Shown: piece by piece, positions 8,785 to 17,483 of the stretch
How the letters are laid out: the number at the start of each line of letters is the position of its first letter
How positions within the stretch are numbered: position 1 is the stretch's first letter
Assembly (NCBI GenBank): GCA_016931695.1
Contig: JAFGEI010000025.1
Coordinates: forward strand, 7,266-71,265
Reading direction: 5' to 3'
Source of the DNA: Anaerolineae bacterium
GTDB lineage: Bacteria > Chloroflexota > Anaerolineae > B4-G1 > DUEL01
DNA: 64,000 bases
Translations under genes and position numbers: made by a program
Notes under the pieces: generated by a model
The model's input: only the letters and a program-made list of their open reading frames with translations
What the model was told of the DNA's origin: nothing
Databases searched by the model: none

Positions 8785-9072
8785 ATGACCAAGAAACTGT
8801 ATGTAGGAAATCTGAGCTACTCGACCACCAACGCGACGCTCTCTGAACTCTTTGGAGCTGTCGGAGAAGTCGAATCTGTCAACCTCATCACCGACCGCAT
8901 GACGGGCCAATCGAAGGGCTTTGCCTTTGTCGAAATGGCAGAACATTCCGCAGCCCTGGAGGCCATCGAGCAGCTCAACGGGAAAGAATTGGATGGCCGT
9001 TCGATCAAGGTCGCCGAAGCTCGCCCCCGGCAAGACAATCGTGGGGAAGGACAGCGCGGCCGCCGTTGGTAG
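8785..9072 (+). CDS. RRM-domain RNA-binding protein
   Basis: KLYVGNLSY (RNP2) and KGFAFVEM (RNP1) are present, with a Gly/Arg-rich tail. Confidence 0.88.
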   Translation: MTKKLYVGNLSYSTTNATLSELFGAVGEVESVNLITDRMTGQSKGFAFVEMAEHSAALEAIEQLNGKELDGRSIKVAEARPRQDNRGEGQRGRRW

Positions 9073-9150
9073 AATAACCGCAACGATCCGGAAATCGGCC
9101 TGGATGTTCCGCCCTGTGCGGAGCAAAACCAGATAACCGCCGAGCAGACT

Positions 9151-9187
9151 GTCGCGTGGCTTTTCCGCATGCCACGCGACTTTTTTT
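9151..9187 (+). terminator. Rho-independent terminator after the RRM gene
   Basis: Perfect 10-bp inverted repeat GTCGCGTGGC...GCCACGCGAC with a 10-nt loop, then TTTTTTT. Confidence 0.75.
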
Positions 9188-9255
9188 GCCGTGCCCTTGG
9201 AAGTGCTTTCCCGGCCAACAGACACGGCCGGTTGGCATGCATTCAGCGGCAAACG

Positions 9256-9264
9256 TGCTATAAT
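9256..9264 (+). promoter_or_regulatory. Extended -10 TGcTATAAT driving a leaderless transcript of the zinc-ribbon operon
   Basis: The -10 ends at 9264 and the ATG is at 9273 with no SD in between. The predicted TSS is 1-2 nt before the ATG. Confidence 0.55.
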
Positions 9265-9272
9265 AGTGCCCC

Positions 9273-10079
9273 ATGGACAAACCAGTCTCCGTTCAGCAGT
9301 TCAAATGCACCCAGTGCGGCGGAGAGCTGCATCCCGACGAAGGGCAGCGGTTTGTCACCTGCCCCTATTGCAGCTCCACCGTCTACCTCGACAAGTCCTG
9401 CGTCGTTTTTCACTGGTACCTGGCCCCCACGCTCGACGAGGGCAAAGCGCGGGCAGCTCTTGCGCGCTGGATGGCCGGCAACGAAACGGTCAAAGACCTG
9501 GACAAGAAATCCCGCGTCGTCGCGGTCACATTCCAATACTTTCCCATCTGGTACTTGAAGCAGCGCCGGGAAGGGCGGGAGAACATTTTCCTGGAACTTG
9601 CAGCCGCGACCTCGGTGAGCGAACTCAAGCGCCTCCATCTTCCCGCTGGCGACTTGCGGCGCTACGACCCGGTGCTGGATGCGACGGCGCAGCCGCCGAC
9701 GGTCCCCCTGCAGGCGGCGCTGGACTGGCTGGCAGAACGAAACGTCGATGCGGCCGAGATCGTCGAGAGCGCATTGGTGCACGTCCCACTGTATGCTTTC
9801 AAGTACCAATACGACGACCAGCGGTATACCGCCGTCGTCGAGGGCGCGACGGGCAGGGTGTTTGCCAATATCTATCCGGCCAAGGCCGAAGCGCCGTACC
9901 TGTTCGTGGGCGGGCTGACCGCCGCGGTCTTTTTCTGCCTGGCGACCTTGCCCGTCGCCGGGGCGTTGATCGAGGGCGGAGAGGGGCTGGGAATCGGCCT
10001 GCTGCTCCTGCTGGCATTGGGAGTCCCGGCTGCGCTGCTGCTGCTTGGGCTGGCAGCCTGGGTGGCCTCGAGAGTATGA
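9273..10079 (+). CDS. Zinc-ribbon membrane protein, paralog 1 (uncharacterised family)
   Basis: N-terminal CTQCGGELHPDEGQRFVTCPYC, a soluble middle domain and two C-terminal TM helices. The stop overlaps the next start (ATGA). Confidence 0.7.
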   Translation: MDKPVSVQQFKCTQCGGELHPDEGQRFVTCPYCSSTVYLDKSCVVFHWYLAPTLDEGKARAALARWMAGNETVKDLDKKSRVVAVTFQYFPIWYLKQRREGRENIFLELAAATSVSELKRLHLPAGDLRRYDPVLDATAQPPTVPLQAALDWLAERNVDAAEIVESALVHVPLYAFKYQYDDQRYTAVVEGATGRVFANIYPAKAEAPYLFVGGLTAAVFFCLATLPVAGALIEGGEGLGIGLLLLLALGVPAALLLLGLAAWVASRV

Positions 10080-11110
10080 GCGAGAAAAAAGCACTGCACG
10101 GCCTGGGATGTCCCCAATGCGGGGGCATTATCTCCATCCCCGAGGGGCAGATCGTGGTCCAGTGCCCCTACTGCGACTTGTGTTCGCTGGTGCAAGGGGA
10201 GCGAGGTCTGCGGCGCTACCAGGTCGCCCGCCGTGTCGACCGCAGCCAGGCGCTGGCGCAGCTCGAGAGCTTTTTCTCCCGCAGCGCGGTGGCGCGGGAC
10301 GTCGCCCGGCGGGCGCAGCTGGAGCAAGTCTTGCTGGTCCATCTTCCATTCTGGGCGGTCTGGGCGCGGGTGCTGGGTTGGATTTTCGGTCAGAAGCGCG
10401 TTCAACAAGGAAAGAACGTCCGCTACGACCCCCGCGAGGTCAAGGTCGCCGAGATGATGGTCTGGAGCGGCGCCGCTTGTGACGTGGGTGAGTTCGGCGT
10501 CGAGCAAATTCCCTTGAAGGGGAAAGCGGTCGAACCCTTTGCCGCCGACGCACTCCACGCCAGCGGCCTGGTCTTTGAGCCTACCGGTTCCGTCAGCGAC
10601 GCCGAGGCAGCGGCAAAGGTGGATTTCGAGACCCGCGTCCGCGATCTGGCGGGCCTTGACCGGATCGGGCAGGTCTTTGTCCGCCTCGTCCGCCAGCGGA
10701 TGGGACTGGTCTATTACCCGCTGTGGGTGGTCCGCTACCTTTACCGCGAGCGGGCCTTCCAGCTCGTGGTGGATGGCGCCTCGGGCGAGATATTGTACGG
10801 CAAGGCGCCCGGCAGCACGCTCTACCGGGCGGCGGTGCTGGTGGGCGGGATGGCCCTGGGAGCGCTGCTGATAGTCGATGGCGCAGCCCTCGCCTTTTAC
10901 CTGGCGACGCGGATGGACGACGACGGCGTGGCCGGGTTGATCGTCGGCGGGATTGCGGCCATTGGCTTTGGCGCCGCCTTGATGGCCCGGGCATACAAAA
11001 AGTTCCGCTACGGCGAGCAGTACGAGTACCGGGGTTTCGAAAAGCGGAAACAGCGCCGGCGCCAGAGCAAGGAAGGCGCCGTCCTGCGCGCGCGGGAGGA
11101 GGAGGGATGA
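10076..11110 (+). CDS. Zinc-ribbon membrane protein, paralog 2 (uncharacterised family)
   Basis: The ORF track frame 9191..11110 is open. The real start is taken at ATG 10076 (MSEKKALHGLGCPQCGGIISIPEGQIVVQCPYC). It shares the Y.Y..R...VVDGASG motif and C-terminal TM helices with paralog 1. The stop overlaps the next start (ATGA). Confidence 0.7.
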   Translation: MSEKKALHGLGCPQCGGIISIPEGQIVVQCPYCDLCSLVQGERGLRRYQVARRVDRSQALAQLESFFSRSAVARDVARRAQLEQVLLVHLPFWAVWARVLGWIFGQKRVQQGKNVRYDPREVKVAEMMVWSGAACDVGEFGVEQIPLKGKAVEPFAADALHASGLVFEPTGSVSDAEAAAKVDFETRVRDLAGLDRIGQVFVRLVRQRMGLVYYPLWVVRYLYRERAFQLVVDGASGEILYGKAPGSTLYRAAVLVGGMALGALLIVDGAALAFYLATRMDDDGVAGLIVGGIAAIGFGAALMARAYKKFRYGEQYEYRGFEKRKQRRRQSKEGAVLRAREEEG

Positions 11111-11646
11111 CCGCGCCGGTGCAACTGATCCCCCTGCGCTGCCTGCGCTGCGAGACGCCGCTCCCCGCCCAGCCGGACGAGGTCGCCTGGGTCTGCCAGC
11201 AGTGCGGGCAGGGCCTGCTGCTGGACGAAGAGGCGGGACTGGTCCCGCTGGCGGTCCACTTTGCGGCCAACGTCCCAGGTACCGCTGGCCGTCCCTTCTG
11301 GGTTGCCAAGGGCCAGGTCGGCTTGCAGCGCCAGACCTATCACGGCTCCTCCAGGGCAAAGCAAGAAGCGGCTGCAATGTGGGATCGCCGGCAGCGCTTT
11401 TTTGTGCCCGCTTTTTCCTGCCCCCTGGACGTGCTGGTCGACGTGGGGGCGCGGATGCTGCTGAACCCGCCCGACCTGCAGCCCGGCGAGCCGGTGCCGT
11501 TCGCCCCGGTGACCCTCTCCCCCCTCGACGTCCGCCCGGTGGCCGAGTTCATCGTCATGGCCGTCGAGGCGGAACGAAAGGACAAGCTGAAGGCACTCCA
11601 TTTTGTCGTCGAGATGGAGCAGCCCGAGCTGTGGATACTCCCCTAG
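11107..11646 (+). CDS. Zinc-ribbon protein, paralog 3 (soluble; uncharacterised family)
   Basis: Start at ATG 11107 (MTAPVQLIPLRCLRCETPLPAQPDEVAWVCQQCGQ). It shares the P-F-W aromatic segment with paralogs 1 and 2. No TM helix is present. Confidence 0.65.
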   Translation: MTAPVQLIPLRCLRCETPLPAQPDEVAWVCQQCGQGLLLDEEAGLVPLAVHFAANVPGTAGRPFWVAKGQVGLQRQTYHGSSRAKQEAAAMWDRRQRFFVPAFSCPLDVLVDVGARMLLNPPDLQPGEPVPFAPVTLSPLDVRPVAEFIVMAVEAERKDKLKALHFVVEMEQPELWILP

Positions 11647-11685: not shown

Positions 11686-13047
11686 TCACGGGTAGACGGC
11701 GATTTGGGCGAATCCGGCCATCGTCGTGTCGATGGTCCGCTGGGCGCCGCTGATCTCGCCGACCCGAATCTCGTACGTTCCCCGCCCGCCGACGACGTAG
11801 GCAAAAGCCCGGTCGTCGATCCAGTTCACCGACTCGACCCGCGCCGCTTCCGCCGGGGGCACCAGCCGCTGCGGCGGCTGGCCGATCTCGCCCAGGTAGA
11901 CCTCGCCCGGCGCGTTCTGCCAGAACAGAAAGTGACGGCTGTCGGGATGCCAGCTCAAGAATTCGAGCGCACCGCTGGCATAGACCACGGCGCGAGCGCC
12001 GTCCCCGTCGGCGATGAACAGGTCGCGCGCGGCAGCCGCTCTCTCCTCGGCGGCGAGCGTGTAGGCGATGTGCGCCCGGTCGGGCGACCAGAAATCGTCA
12101 TCCATGGTGGCAGAGAGGAACTGTCCCGCGAGCGTATTGAGGCGTTGCGCTTCGCCGCGGCGGGGGATGCGCCACAGGTCGGCCGTCGCGCCCGGCGCGA
12201 AGGGATCGGAGGAAGAGATGGCGGCCAGTCCGTAGGCGCCGTCGGGGGACCACACCGGCGCCGGTTGGTAGGCGTACTCGCTGGCGGTGTTGACGAAATC
12301 GAACGAGACGATCGGCCCCCATTCCCCTCGCGCCAGGTTCCACACGGCCACCGCCGTGGGACTGCTGATCAGCATGTCGGCGCCGTCGGGGGAAAAGCTA
12401 AAGTTGCCGCCCTCCCCGTCCTGCAGGAGCTGAACCGGCTCCCGCGCCGCCAGGTCGATCCGCCACAGGTCCTGGTTGTGCATCAGCCCGTAGCCGATCA
12501 TCAGGTGGGTGTTGAACGCGACCGCCTGGCTGTCGGGGAACCACATCGCCTGGAGAGGCAGCCGGTCGATGGGTGCTGCCGCGTCCCCCCCCGCCGGCAC
12601 GCCGGTCTCTCCCGGCAGGTCCTCTGGCCCCACCAGGTGCCGCTCCCCGCTCCCGTCCGTTCCCACGACGCGCAGCTCGAGGCGCGGCAGGTCGGACGGG
12701 CCAGGCGCCAGCTGGCGGCGAAAGAGCACCCACGCGCCGTCCGGCGAGATCAAGGGATCGCTGTCCGCCCCGGCCGTCAGCTGGCGGGGCAGGGCCTGTT
12801 CCTCAAGCAGCGCAATCCAGAGCCCGCCGTCGCCGGTGTAGACGACGAACGACCCGTGCCCGGCCGCCGGTGACGGCGTCGGCAGTGGCGCTGGTGTCGG
12901 GCTCGACTCTGGCGGCAGAGCTGTCGGAGGTAGGGTCGTCGGGGACACCGGCGGCGGCTCGGCGGTGGGGATGGGAAACCCGCACGCCAGCGACAAGAGA
13001 ACCAACGCCAGCACGGCCAACAAAAAAGCCTGTCGATTCCGCATCAT
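11686..13047 (-). CDS. TolB-like beta-propeller lipoprotein (PD40 repeats)
   Basis: The signal peptide has lipobox LSLAC. Repeated SPDG(A/W/Y) blades are present (SPDGAWVLF, SPDGADMLIS, SPDGAYGLA, SPDRAHIAY). The start at MMRNRQ follows RBS GAGGTGA. Confidence 0.8.
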   Translation of the reverse strand: MMRNRQAFLLAVLALVLLSLACGFPIPTAEPPPVSPTTLPPTALPPESSPTPAPLPTPSPAAGHGSFVVYTGDGGLWIALLEEQALPRQLTAGADSDPLISPDGAWVLFRRQLAPGPSDLPRLELRVVGTDGSGERHLVGPEDLPGETGVPAGGDAAAPIDRLPLQAMWFPDSQAVAFNTHLMIGYGLMHNQDLWRIDLAAREPVQLLQDGEGGNFSFSPDGADMLISSPTAVAVWNLARGEWGPIVSFDFVNTASEYAYQPAPVWSPDGAYGLAAISSSDPFAPGATADLWRIPRRGEAQRLNTLAGQFLSATMDDDFWSPDRAHIAYTLAAEERAAAARDLFIADGDGARAVVYASGALEFLSWHPDSRHFLFWQNAPGEVYLGEIGQPPQRLVPPAEAARVESVNWIDDRAFAYVVGGRGTYEIRVGEISGAQRTIDTTMAGFAQIAVYP

Positions 13048-13129
13048 CTCATCACCTCGAGGGACAATCACTGCCTATCCCAAAGGTGTCTGGCACCTCT
13101 GGGCTTCCAATGAGCCATCGTCGCAGCAG

Positions 13130-16100
13130 TTACCTGCCTGCTGCGCTGCTTGCCCGGACCAGGGGCAGGAAAACCCGCCACGGCTCCAAGTTGATCCACG
13201 CTGCTCGCTCCCACGCCCCCCCAGCCCCGTCGTCGAGAAAAGCGACGCTGTAGAGCGGGGGATGGAGCGGCGCGCGGGGCAGGGTCAACTGGTAGGTGAC
13301 GGTTACCCGTTTCCCGACCGCCAGGGGCCCGCTCCAGCAGACTGCTCCTGGCAGGGGCTCTGCTGTCCCTCCTCCCAGCCAGGACAGGGTGTCCGTCAGC
13401 AAGATTGATTCGCCCGGCAACGAGATCACCGCCGTCGCCGACAGCGCGGCGCTCAAGCCGGCGTTCACCGCCTGCAGCGTGCAGGTGACCGTCCCACCGG
13501 GGCGGGCTGGCGAAGGGCTGCAGCCCAACCGCGACGGCGCCAGGTCCGGCGCGCCGACCCGCACCGCGGCCGCGCGCTGGAAGTGGATTCGCTGCTCCTC
13601 GATGCCCAGCGCGGCGACGTTGACGATGGGCGTGGCAGGGTCCAGCCCTTCCGCCACGGTGACGCAATAAGTTGCCGCCAGGGATTCTCCGGCAGCGAGC
13701 CCGCCCGACCAGGAAACCCGGCGCGTCGCCGGGTCGTAATTCAGCGGCGGGCCCAGGCTGCCGGGAACGAGGGCCAGGCTGAGCGGGATGGTGTTGGAAA
13801 GCGATGCCGTGATCGCCTCCGGCCCGTCGTTCGACAGGCGCAGGCTGTAGGTCAGCCCGCTTCCCGCAGCGACGACGGCGCGGTCGGCGGCAAAGGTCGA
13901 ACCGCCCATCCAGGACAGCCATCCCGTCACCTGGGACACGAGCTGCGGGCGCGCCTCCCGCGGCAGGGCTTCGAAGGGGAAGGGGAAAAAAACCGCCGCC
14001 TGCTGCCCCGCTCGCCGCGCCAGGCCCAGCCCGTGCCGCCGTTCGTCCCGCAGGAGGACGGCGGTGCCCGGCGTCGGCTCCACGCCGTCTGACCAGTTCG
14101 GGTAGGGATAATCCAGGAGCAAGTCCCCGTCGATGCCGACGACGGTCTCTTGCGGCGTCCTGCGCACCAGCGTCGGCGTCACGCCCTCGGTATACGTCAG
14201 CACGCCCAGGAATTCTTGGCCGAAGGGATCGAGGCCGTGCTCGTAGAGAAAATCCTGCGCCGAGAGAAAGAGCCTCCCCCCGCTCTCCAGGTAGGCCTGC
14301 AGGGTCGCCTCCTCGTCGGCGGTGATCGGCTGGTACCAGTCGTAGCCGGTCCACCAGACCACGACCGGGTACCAGCGCAGCACGTCGAGCGGCGGGCTGT
14401 GATCGCGGGAAGAGCCGAGGGCGGGGTGGGTCTGCCACAGGTCGTAGGGCAGGCCGGCCTCCTTTGCTGCCACCTGGTAGACCTTTTTCTGCTCGTACCA
14501 GCGGTCGTCGTCCACCAGCAGGATCGGGGCCGGCACCTTGGAGGTCAGCACCGCCGTCTGGCTGAGCGTGGGAGAGAGGGAGGATTGGGCGGTCAGGGTG
14601 ATCACGTCCAGGTCATTCCAGCCGGCGGTGATGGGCAGGGTGACGCTGACGACGACCGTACCAGAAGTGCAGGGCTCCAGGGTCAGGACGGCGGTGCTGA
14701 GCTGGGTGGGCCACGCATCGCCCGCCACGGCCAGGTGGATCGCATCGACCGGGCCGCCCTGGCCGACGTGCCGCAGCCGCAGGGCGTGGGTGACGACGGT
14801 CCCTGCTGCGCCGACCCGCGTCTGGGCCGGCGGCGTCATCTCCAGGCCGGCGGTGAGCGGGGCAGAGACCAGCCAGTCCAGGGCCCGCCCCATCACCGCG
14901 CGGCGGGCGCCCCGGTCGTCGATGCCCTCGAAGCCAAAGGAGAGGTAGACGACGCGATAGTCGAGACAGGTCCCGACCCGCACGCCGCCGAGGCCGTTTC
15001 CACGGTAGGCCAGCACTGGCGCGGCGGCGTCCGGGTCGGCCACGGCGACCACGTCGGGGAAGTGCTGGTTGTCGGCCCCGCCGGGGCCGGTGATGGTGAT
15101 GGCGATGCCGGCCATGATCTCGCCCGGCAGCCCCTCCAGGGTCCAGACGTTGCTGTTGTCCGCCTCCCAGGAGCATTTCAAATAGGCGCGGTAGTAGGGG
15201 GAAAAAGACCATCCGCCGTCCAGCAGGCCGACGTCCTGCCCGCTGAGCAACAACCGGCCTCCCCCGTCGAGGTAGCCGGTCACGGCGTCCGCCGCGCCGA
15301 TGAACCCCGGCGCGTCCCAGGGGGCGGACCAGACGACGGCGTCGTAGCGCAGCAGGTCCGCCGCGCCGGGCAGGTCCCCCGGCAGGCGGCGGATGGGCCA
15401 CTCGTCGTAGGCATAGGCCAGGTCGTCCAGCGCCGCGCGGTAGTAGGCGGCCTGGCTTTCGTAATACCAGCCGCCGCTGTCGACCAGGAGGAGGGTCGGG
15501 GCGGGGGGAAGGGCCAGGTCGATCACGGTTGTTTCCCCGGCTGTGACGACCGCCGTGGCAGTGACGACCCGGTAGCCCAGGCGCCGCGCCTGCACGGTAT
15601 AGACGCCGGCGGGCGGGGTAAAGGTGTAGGTCGCGCCGGTCGTTTCCAGGGGGGTGCCGAGCAGGGTGACGGTCGCGCTGAGCGGAGCGCCGCTGTCGGC
15701 GGCGGTGACGGCGCCGTGCAGGACGCCGCTCGGCAGGGGGGTCAGAAAGACGTTCTCCACCGTGGTCGCCCCGCTGATGACCTGAACGCCCCAGCAGGTC
15801 TCGGGTTGGTAGCCAAAGGCGGAAACGGCCAGGTCGTAGACGTCCGGGGCCAGCGCCAGCCGGTAGCCGCCCGCGTCGTCGGTGTGGGTCGTTCCGCCGC
15901 CCCCGCCGCCGTGCGGCGAGGCGGCGACCGTCGCCCCGCCAATGGGGGAGCCGCCGACCTGGCGCACCGTCCCGCTGACGTAGCCGGGCTGGGCCAGGGC
16001 GGCGACGGCAGCCAGGGCGTCGATGCGCCCCCAGCCGCTGTCGTTGTTGGGCACCACGTCGGTCAGGGGGACGGCGGTGCGGGTGATGATGGAGAGGGTG

Positions 16101-17416
16101 CGCGAGACCCCCAGCGTCGGGCTGACGGAGCGGAGCAATGCCGCCAGGCCGGTGACGTGGGGCGCCGCCATCGACGTGCCGTTGGCGGAGCCATAGACGC
16201 CGCCGGGCAGGCTGGAGACGACGTGCACCCCCGGCGCGACGATGTGGGGGCGAACCTGGCCCCACGGCGAAGGGCCGCGGCTGGAAAAGCTCGCCACCTC
16301 GTCGTACTCGTCGCTGGCCCCCACGGCGACCGACTCTGGCAGCGAGGCTGGCGAACCGACGCTGCCTTCCCCCGCGCCGTAATTGCCGCTGGCAAAGACG
16401 GGGAGCACCCCAATCGCTCGCAGTGCCTGCAGGTCAGGCTGAAAAGTCGTCAGTGCGCTGTTGGGACTGGACCAGGAGCAATTGACCACGTCGGGCGCGC
16501 GCTCGGGGTCGCCGCCCGGGGCCAGCAGCCACTGGAAACCGGCGTGAATCCAGGAATCGTAGGCATACCCTGCCCCGTTAAACACCTTGACCCCGATCCA
16601 CCGGGCACCGGGAGCGACGCCAATCCCTTCCCGGCCCACGGCGCTGCCCATCGTGTGTGTCCCGTGTCCATGATCGTCAATGGGGTAGAGCGAGCCATTG
16701 ATCGCGTCGTACCAGTTGCCGATGTGGTTGGGCGGGCCGTGGGGCGAAAAGCCGCGGTAGTTGGCCTGCAGGGCAGGGTGAAGCCAGTCGACGCCGGTGT
16801 CCATCCCCGCCACCACCGCGTTGGTGCCCGAAATGTGCAGGGCGGCCCAGACCTCGGGCGCGCCGATGCGGGCCACGTTCCACTCGGGGACGGCAAGCGG
16901 ACGGGCGGCTGCGCCCGGCTGGGGCGGGTCGGCAATCCACTGGCGGTAATGATCCAGCCGCACCAGGGCGACGTCGGGATGCGCGGCCAACAGCCGGACG
17001 GCGGCCGGGCGCGCCCGCACGGCAATCGCGTTGACGATCCAAAAAGGCGTGTAGGATTCGACCGCGCCCGCGGCCTGTTGCTGTTCCAGGCAAGCCCGCA
17101 ACGGCGCCTGGCTCTGTTCCGCCAGGGACTGCAGGCCGGCGACGAGGTGCGCGCGCACCTCTCCCGCCGCCGGAGCGGGCTGTTGGCGCAAAAAGAAAAT
17201 GACCGGCAGCATCTCCCCCGGCGCGGCGCCCGCCAGTGCGCGGAGCAGGGCGGGTTCGAGCGGCGCGGCGGGCAGCGGGCTGGTTGGCCGGGGCAGGGAC
17301 CCGCGCGCCATGGGAGAGGGAAGGGCCTTGGTGGGCGGCAGCCCTTCCGCTCCGGCGGGCAGCAGCAGGAGCGTGACCAGAACGACGGCCAAAAACCACG
17401 GCGCTATTTTCCGCAT
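13130..17416 (-). CDS. Very large secreted subtilisin-like (S8) serine protease with long C-terminal beta-rich domains
   Basis: The catalytic triad motifs are AGMDTGVD (Asp), HGHGTHTMGS (His) and GTSMAAPHVTGLAAL (Ser). The signal peptide is MRKIAPWFLAVVLVTLLLLPAGA. About 1000 aa follow the protease domain with Ig-like, CarboxypepD_reg-like and Gly-rich segments. Confidence 0.9.
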   Translation of the reverse strand: MRKIAPWFLAVVLVTLLLLPAGAEGLPPTKALPSPMARGSLPRPTSPLPAAPLEPALLRALAGAAPGEMLPVIFFLRQQPAPAAGEVRAHLVAGLQSLAEQSQAPLRACLEQQQAAGAVESYTPFWIVNAIAVRARPAAVRLLAAHPDVALVRLDHYRQWIADPPQPGAAARPLAVPEWNVARIGAPEVWAALHISGTNAVVAGMDTGVDWLHPALQANYRGFSPHGPPNHIGNWYDAINGSLYPIDDHGHGTHTMGSAVGREGIGVAPGARWIGVKVFNGAGYAYDSWIHAGFQWLLAPGGDPERAPDVVNCSWSSPNSALTTFQPDLQALRAIGVLPVFASGNYGAGEGSVGSPASLPESVAVGASDEYDEVASFSSRGPSPWGQVRPHIVAPGVHVVSSLPGGVYGSANGTSMAAPHVTGLAALLRSVSPTLGVSRTLSIITRTAVPLTDVVPNNDSGWGRIDALAAVAALAQPGYVSGTVRQVGGSPIGGATVAASPHGGGGGGTTHTDDAGGYRLALAPDVYDLAVSAFGYQPETCWGVQVISGATTVENVFLTPLPSGVLHGAVTAADSGAPLSATVTLLGTPLETTGATYTFTPPAGVYTVQARRLGYRVVTATAVVTAGETTVIDLALPPAPTLLLVDSGGWYYESQAAYYRAALDDLAYAYDEWPIRRLPGDLPGAADLLRYDAVVWSAPWDAPGFIGAADAVTGYLDGGGRLLLSGQDVGLLDGGWSFSPYYRAYLKCSWEADNSNVWTLEGLPGEIMAGIAITITGPGGADNQHFPDVVAVADPDAAAPVLAYRGNGLGGVRVGTCLDYRVVYLSFGFEGIDDRGARRAVMGRALDWLVSAPLTAGLEMTPPAQTRVGAAGTVVTHALRLRHVGQGGPVDAIHLAVAGDAWPTQLSTAVLTLEPCTSGTVVVSVTLPITAGWNDLDVITLTAQSSLSPTLSQTAVLTSKVPAPILLVDDDRWYEQKKVYQVAAKEAGLPYDLWQTHPALGSSRDHSPPLDVLRWYPVVVWWTGYDWYQPITADEEATLQAYLESGGRLFLSAQDFLYEHGLDPFGQEFLGVLTYTEGVTPTLVRRTPQETVVGIDGDLLLDYPYPNWSDGVEPTPGTAVLLRDERRHGLGLARRAGQQAAVFFPFPFEALPREARPQLVSQVTGWLSWMGGSTFAADRAVVAAGSGLTYSLRLSNDGPEAITASLSNTIPLSLALVPGSLGPPLNYDPATRRVSWSGGLAAGESLAATYCVTVAEGLDPATPIVNVAALGIEEQRIHFQRAAAVRVGAPDLAPSRLGCSPSPARPGGTVTCTLQAVNAGLSAALSATAVISLPGESILLTDTLSWLGGGTAEPLPGAVCWSGPLAVGKRVTVTYQLTLPRAPLHPPLYSVAFLDDGAGGAWERAAWINLEPWRVFLPLVRASSAAGR

Positions 17417-17422
17417 ACGTAC

Positions 17423-17431
17423 ATTATAGCA
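17423..17431 (-). promoter_or_regulatory. Extended -10 (TGcTATAAT on minus strand), 6 nt upstream of the S8 protease ATG (leaderless)
   Basis: Reverse complement of 17414-17431 reads TGCTATAATGTACGTATG. Confidence 0.5.
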
Positions 17432-17483
17432 CAGCGCGGCCCCCTGCCGCAACCAAACCGGGTTGCTGTTTTTCCCCCCTTTC

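Follow-up and report, generated by a model that had tools for sequence, protein, structure and literature searches.

What kind of system is encoded by three genes that open alike, sit tightly together and resemble nothing in the standard family libraries? A stretch of 64,000 nucleotides from an Anaerolineae bacterium of the Chloroflexota (GenBank assembly GCA_016931695.1, contig JAFGEI010000025.1, positions 7,266 to 71,265 of the forward strand; hereafter the window) carries three such genes, which we call A, B and C and whose products each begin with a zinc ribbon. Profile comparison identifies A and B as distant members of the YdjG/SamG family, studied in Bacillus subtilis. We consider it moderately probable that A, B and C make up a YdjG/SamG-like complex on the cytoplasmic face of the membrane that acts in membrane or envelope homeostasis.

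A and B are distant relatives of YdjG/SamG

Scans of A, B and C against Pfam, NCBIfam, PADLOC and PHROGs gave sub-threshold ribbon matches only, the sole weak family matches being to TFIIB-type and RpoP-type ribbons, and sequence-profile searches of the PDB with B and C found nothing. An initial annotation of this DNA had placed the proteins in no characterised family, a statement that holds for these four libraries and fails overall, given the homology of A and B to YdjG/SamG. The path to this relative led through gene neighbourhoods in other lineages, where a gene for an SPFH protein (Band_7_1/Band_7) lies directly upstream of A–B–C (L086/L087, L088 and L093). Its product has a low-complexity linker followed by C-terminal double zinc ribbons, the architecture of B. 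subtilis YdjI, and the pspA-ydjGHI operon was therefore examined for a relative of the triad. The YdjG sequence was taken from locus L092, a metagenome contig located through a published ydjG primer sequence (a search of viral contigs with the 30-mer of this primer gave no hit). A combined profile of A and B aligned by hhalign to this single sequence with 97.7% probability (E 2e-12, 251 columns, YdjG residues 51–335), and hmmscan with YdjG returned two collinear segments (E 3e-9 and 4e-9). The aligned span runs from the second ribbon of YdjG through Y-I-P-F-W and L-L-P-V-W...N-G-Q-T-G-K-V-V-G-K-P-P into the transmembrane (TM) segment.

The likeness extends to overall layout. As in A and B, YdjG runs from an N-terminal C4 ribbon through the same alpha/beta region to a C-terminal membrane segment, with matching motifs after the first helix (Y-I-P-F-W) and before the TM segment (L-L-P-V-W-x-V-x-Y-x-Y ... 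N-G-Q-T-G-K-V-V-G-K-P-P), and its length of 341 residues is close to the 344 of B. One paper reports YdjG to be a zinc-ribbon membrane protein (PMC9239133), and Ravi et al. 2024 (PMC11237479) divide it into a pair of zinc ribbons, an uncharacterised NTF2-like domain related to YpeB, and a TM segment. In B. subtilis it serves as a membrane anchor for the PspA–YdjGHI complex, which acts in membrane stress. Both YdjG and YdjH are needed for the membrane foci formed by the SPFH protein YdjI and by PspA (PMC8581546; bioRxiv 10.64898/2026.02.06.704340), and ydjG and ydjH mutants mislocalise cell-wall (peptidoglycan) synthesis under alkaline shock (PMC8581546). A 2026 preprint renamed the three proteins SamG, SamH and SamI and proposed that SamI restrains signalling by a SamG–SamH membrane complex (bioRxiv 10.64898/2026.02.06.704340).

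Several observations weigh against the YdjG/SamG-like interpretation. The match is remote, at about 17% identity between a profile and a single sequence, and fold searches with the moderate-confidence AlphaFold 2 model of B (predicted local distance difference test score, pLDDT, 72) gave no significant match. Where A and B each carry a single ribbon and a TM hairpin, YdjG carries two ribbons and a single TM segment, and no partner resembling C exists in B. subtilis. Neither the window nor the 8 kb around the triad in any of 80 Anaerolineae loci contains a PspA, YdjI-type SPFH or YdjH/TPM gene, tblastn searches with the B. subtilis PspA, YdjH and YdjI proteins having given no match, and of the nine distinct non-Anaerolineae genomic contexts inspected only three carry the SPFH gene. 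The two arrangements also differ in that B. subtilis has a single YdjG rather than a pair of paralogs, and in that its operon is driven by a sigma-W promoter upstream of pspA whereas the promoter of the Anaerolineae triad is predicted to be leaderless.

The triad is conserved in Anaerolineae and recurs in distant lineages

A, B and C are real genes in a tight operon. They match locus tags JW900_02490, 02495 and 02500 exactly, with the lengths of 268, 344 and 179 residues read by the initial annotation and with ATGA stop–start overlaps at 10076 and 11107. The N-termini of homologs align at the proposed starts, which excludes the use of the long alternative frames ahead of B and C. For synteny we sampled 80 loci from a scan covering a single genome for each GTDB species, all of them from Anaerolineae or Chloroflexota and including cultured Anaerolinea thermolimosa IMO-1. 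Whether the triplet forms a conserved syntenic unit had been raised from the sequence, and the answer is positive: the order A–B–C is kept in essentially all of those among the 80 loci that have room for the triad, at protein identities of 41–73%. The flanks vary among annotated contexts. In none of the 80 loci is the triad flanked by csp, the RRM-protein gene, rplT or the gene that follows it in this window, so that the significance earlier hinted at for csp and RRM as neighbours is not supported, and a functional link to csp, RRM or rplT was rejected.

The commonest conserved neighbour is a PLD-family gene some 30 nt after C in the same orientation, found in 38 of the 80 loci, where it may be a fourth member of the operon. 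Its product (for example L081:11591-12661) is a two-domain PLDc_2 protein with sub-threshold similarity to NucT and DrmC, and an N-terminal signal or lipoprotein-like sequence indicates that it is exported. No homolog of it was found in the window.

At E <= 1e-3, homologs number at least 1068 for A, at least 1043 for B and 344 for C, annotated only as 'hypothetical' or with automatic RpoP or DUF1610 names. An exhaustive search with the combined A and B profile returned 3920 clusters at 50% identity under the same threshold (1125 at <= 1e-10), with members in the archaea Methanofollis and Methanocorpusculum. Complete A–B–C sets occur in four distant places (L086, L088, L093 and L096), among them an unclassified bacterium of 34% GC (L086; A 2.6e-39, B 2e-40, C 5.9e-13) and the archaeon Methanocorpusculum (L096; A 4.5e-42, B 5.9e-47, C 5.6e-10).

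Some of these loci have further features of their own. In L088 and L093 a gene for a helical protein of about 175 residues, weakly similar to the Leptospira LIMLP_15305 family (L088:3208-3729, L093:749-1294), precedes the YdjI-type gene and the triad, suggesting a five-gene cluster. A PspC-domain gene (L096:2665-2922) lies about 3.4 kb upstream of the Methanocorpusculum triad and could be there by coincidence. Methanofollis sp. W23 carries four tandem B-like paralogs of 403, 406, 366 and 285 residues (L084:6681-11430), the last two without a zinc ribbon; no A- or C-type gene was detected within this array, which adjoins a ParE/DUF7557 pair and an N6 methyltransferase gene. Variant orders also exist: C–B–C in L095:714-2962, where a C-type rather than an A-type gene precedes B, and a C-type gene followed by a B–C fusion in L094:5372-7698.

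A and B are paralogs and C is likely a partner of B

Family alignments of 33 sequences each for A, B and C define the common and the separate parts of the three proteins. The ribbon cysteines stand at residues 12, 15, 30 and 33 in all three. The CxxC pairs that the initial annotation had recognised are thus present throughout, with the spacing CxxC-x14-CxxC in place of the 15–17 residues it had given. In B, C30 and C33 are invariant, and C12 and C15 occur in at least 90% of sequences, the sole exception being truncated at the N-terminus. The aromatic P-(F/I)-W segment noted in all three proteins corresponds to an invariant P-x-W (P91 and W93 in A and B; P63 and W65 in C). A and B also have in common the motif Y.Y..R...VV(E/D)G..G and two C-terminal hydrophobic helices, as had been read from the sequence and as the alignments and the model of B confirm. 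In A, an alpha/beta region with the invariant P-x-W and Y.Y...VEG.TG leads into the C-terminal TM hairpin; in B, the corresponding region carries an insert with the invariant ACDVGEFGV, and a basic tail follows the hairpin. C is soluble, with an N-terminal C4 ribbon, a beta-hairpin bearing P-F-W and an alpha/beta domain for which no structural relative was detected.

The three had been taken for paralogs. This stands for A and B, which comparison over their full length identifies as true paralogs (BLASTP 8e-14; hhalign 99.4%, E 2.5e-21). C has only the ribbon in common with them: hhalign aligned just the ribbon and the following strand (residues 1–43 or 1–49, at 66–77% probability), and BLASTP found no similarity beyond the ribbon. 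An internal duplication within B (40–135 against 160–247) was considered and rejected, with an hhalign probability of 10% and the h-P-h-W motif alone in common.

The clearest pointer to the role of C comes from natural fusions. In P0387 (604 residues, from the Anaerolineae metagenome-assembled genome gene JXM73_25625) a B part at 2–318 is joined to a C part at 411–594, with two extra hydrophobic segments between them; in P0438 (565 residues, L094:6001-7698) B spans 6–314 and C 376–553. From these two independent B–C fusions we conclude that C probably binds B, on the cytoplasmic side, and is a likely partner of it. Together with the C-terminal TM hairpins of A and B, the fusions make the membrane-associated complex suggested in the initial annotation likely. 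A third protein, P0362 (558 residues), begins with part of a protein-kinase C-lobe and the first portion of an AAA_16 domain, ahead of a B-type part, and may be either a genuine fusion or a gene-calling artefact.

A proposed membrane platform and its alternatives

We propose that A and B each consist of a cytoplasmic C4 ribbon, an alpha/beta module and a two-helix hairpin anchor, with both ends in the cytoplasm. The soluble parts are placed there because the N-terminal ribbon lacks a signal peptide, the anchor is a two-helix hairpin and the tail of B is basic. C would be a soluble zinc-ribbon protein that docks on B, and the three would form a heteromeric platform, of putative stoichiometry and topology, at the cytoplasmic membrane face. 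Such a platform would recruit or regulate membrane-maintenance machinery, a role suggested by the YdjG homology and by the gene neighbourhood in other lineages; the candidate partners are SPFH/flotillin-like and possibly PspA/ESCRT-III-like proteins, which would be encoded elsewhere in the Anaerolineae genome. The link to YdjG/SamG makes A, B and C candidate membrane receptors for SPFH or ESCRT-III-like machinery. By the same link, a far larger family, usually working as a paralog pair with a soluble partner, would have the non-ribbon domain of YdjG as its conserved core.

Other known systems offer partial parallels to this platform. We take the G-x-T/S-G-x-V motif after the beta-hairpin in A and B to resemble that of PepSY domains, although Pfam PepSY (PF03413) matches neither protein even at E <= 1, and classical PepSY domains are mostly extracytoplasmic whereas the module of A and B is predicted to be cytoplasmic. 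The region that A and B have in common with YdjG is the one called YpeB-related and NTF2-like (PMC11237479). Escherichia coli PspB and PspC, also small proteins integral to the membrane, likewise keep an ESCRT-III-like or SPFH effector at its cytoplasmic face, and they have been proposed as functional analogues of YdjG and YdjH (bioRxiv 10.64898/2026.02.06.704340), but they lack a zinc ribbon and have no sequence or domain relationship to A, B or C, none of which matches Pfam PspC. Zinc-binding anti-sigma factors (ZAS, zf-HC2) also present a membrane-tethered, N-terminal, cytoplasmic zinc-binding module; they differ in that their HxxxCxxC motif belongs to a helical anti-sigma domain and that an extracytoplasmic domain comes after their TM segment, and A, B and C have no Pfam match to them and no adjacent sigma-factor gene.

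This last resemblance bears on the idea that A, B and C are a membrane-tethered regulator, whose ribbons would bind DNA, RNA, a sigma factor or a transcription factor until a membrane signal set it free, much as an anti-sigma factor does, with no recruitment of SPFH or PspA proteins. The stress signal that the 2026 preprint proposes to come from SamG–SamH, under restraint by SamI, would suit such a device, and so would the match of the first YdjG ribbon to Zn_Ribbon_TF, the restriction of weak family matches to TFIIB-type and RpoP-type ribbons, and the position of the operon after csp and the RRM-protein gene in this window. Those two neighbours, however, are not kept in any of the 80 loci, and no conserved neighbour has a DNA-binding domain or is a sigma-factor or regulator gene. 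Conservation peaks outside the ribbons, as in ACDVGEFGV and YYPLW...VDG.SG..LYGKAPG, and zinc ribbons of this type commonly mediate protein–protein contacts. We consider a tethered regulator quite unlikely. Somewhat less so, though still unlikely, is a structural component of the cytoplasmic membrane or septum specific to the lineage, for instance a scaffold on which filamentous Anaerolineae would make lipids or cell wall, sharing its ancestry with YdjG but not its function. It would account for the occurrence of the module in all 80 Anaerolineae species loci retrieved and for its frequent linkage to the exported PLD-family enzyme, and the mislocalised peptidoglycan synthesis of ydjG and ydjH mutants under alkaline stress (PMC8581546) is in keeping with it. 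The same triad is nevertheless present in the archaeon Methanocorpusculum and in a low-GC bacterium, which makes a role specific to Anaerolineae filaments unlikely, and the conserved neighbours include no cell-division or cell-wall gene.

A, B and C can also be read as an anti-phage or abortive-infection module, in which A and B permeabilise the membrane once C senses infection and the downstream PLD protein acts as a nuclease effector. The similarity of the PLD gene to NucT and DrmC, its place about 30 nt downstream in 38 loci, the ParE toxin and N6 methyltransferase genes next to the tandem Methanofollis paralogs, and an integrase adjoining L088 would all suit such a module. Defence genes are normally patchy and fast-evolving, whereas this triad keeps 41–73% identity across the 80 loci, was retrieved in every one of them and has no second copy in the window. 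PADLOC (at E <= 1) and PHROGs gave no match for A, B or C, GC content and GC content at third codon positions (GC3) are native to the window, and the PLD protein is exported and absent from the window. A defence-system reading of A–B–C is thus unlikely, and the permeabilising module in this specific form highly improbable.

The YdjG/SamG-like complex remains the preferred interpretation. A broader possibility, which we hold to be doubtful, is that A–B–C is an ancient bacterial and archaeal membrane-state sensor or scaffold that works alone, and that YdjG/SamG of Firmicutes is a reduced single-gene offshoot later wired to PspA and SPFH proteins. If so, the triad would be an unrecognised, widespread membrane-homeostasis system in which C brings a new protein fold. 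In either case the family is large yet unannotated, with about 3900 clusters at 50% identity, Archaea included.

A conserved -10 box predicts leaderless expression of A

The initial annotation had described a TGcTATAAT box 8 nt from the first ATG with no Shine–Dalgarno sequence and had predicted a leaderless transcript. The sequence agrees on both observations: TATAAT occupies 9259–9264, its 3' edge lies 8 nt from the ATG of A (9273), and no Shine–Dalgarno sequence precedes A, whereas csp, the RRM-protein gene and C have clear GGAG-type ones. The promoter would rely on the extended -10 element, because the only -35-like hexamer, TTGGCA at 9232–9237, is 21 nt from the -10 box. Comparison supports the prediction. 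Among 76 loci with complete upstream sequence, 68 have a TAnnnT box 5–8 nt (in two cases 10 nt) 5' of an in-frame A start, of which 59 read TATAAT and 43 have the TGn extension, whereas chance would place such a box there in a few percent of loci at this GC content. There is strong comparative evidence, then, for a promoter that holds its -10 box in a fixed position with respect to the start codon of A, a placement used as the signature for predicting leaderless genes in a 2011 survey that detected few of them in Chloroflexota (PMC3160421). The mRNA of A–B–C is accordingly predicted, from sequence comparison, to be leaderless, and the conserved box offers a clean comparative case of such expression in this phylum. 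Transcription would start at, or a few nucleotides from, the ATG of A; B would be translated through its ATGA overlap with A, and C through its overlap with B and a strong Shine–Dalgarno sequence.

A consensus scan returned a single sigma-70-like -35/-10 pair, AGGACA-16-TAGAAT at 9048–9075 (+), which overlaps the stop codon of the RRM-protein gene and lies upstream of the terminator described below.

Features of the operon and its surroundings

The positions of the features discussed here are collected in Table 1.

Table 1 Genes, protein features and expression signals of the A–B–C operon (window coordinates)
Feature	Position	Strand	Details
Intrinsic terminator of upstream RRM-protein gene	9152..9188	+	insulates the operon
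Extended -10 element TGcTATAAT	9256..9264	+	read directly; leaderless transcript predicted
Gene A	9273..10079	+	268 aa
Zinc ribbon of A	9306..9371	+	residues 12-33, CTQCGG...CPYC; C12, C15, C30 and C33 invariant in 33 homologs
TM hairpin of A	9897..10067	+	about residues 209-265; two hydrophobic segments aligned with the TM helices of B
Gene B	10076..11110	+	344 aa
Zinc ribbon of B	10109..10174	+	residues 12-33, CPQCGG...CPYC
TM hairpin of B	10817..11011	+	helices about 248-279 and 285-312; AlphaFold 2 secondary structure and hydrophobic stretches in the alignment
Shine–Dalgarno GGGAGGAGGAGGG for C	11094..11106	+	within the last codons of B; read directly
Gene C	11107..11646	+	179 aa
Zinc ribbon of C	11140..11205	+	residues 12-33, CLRC...CQQC; C12, C15, C30 and C33 invariant

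The terminator upstream of the operon, which the initial annotation had called clean and had placed at 9151–9187, proves to be a strong one. It has a perfect 10-bp GC-rich stem (9152–9161 with 9172–9181), a 10-nt loop and a T7 tail, and folds with a free energy of -26.4 kcal/mol (z = -4.5; none of 200 shuffles folds as well). A simple terminator scan missed it because of the 10-nt loop. The GC content of A–B–C, 0.64–0.68 against 0.646 for the window, marks the operon as native. No further copy of the A, B or C family was found in the window, and an Rfam scan of both strands over its whole length gave no family at gathering score.

Downstream, two minus-strand genes converge on the operon. The nearer, at 11686–13071 (-), ends 39 nt from the stop codon of C, with no terminator detected between the two by scan; it encodes a 461-residue protein with a hydrophobic N-terminus and faint matches of the Tricorn_N (beta-propeller) type. 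The other, at 13130–17452 (-), encodes a 1440-residue secreted subtilisin-like protein, an assignment made from sequence motifs and not by search.

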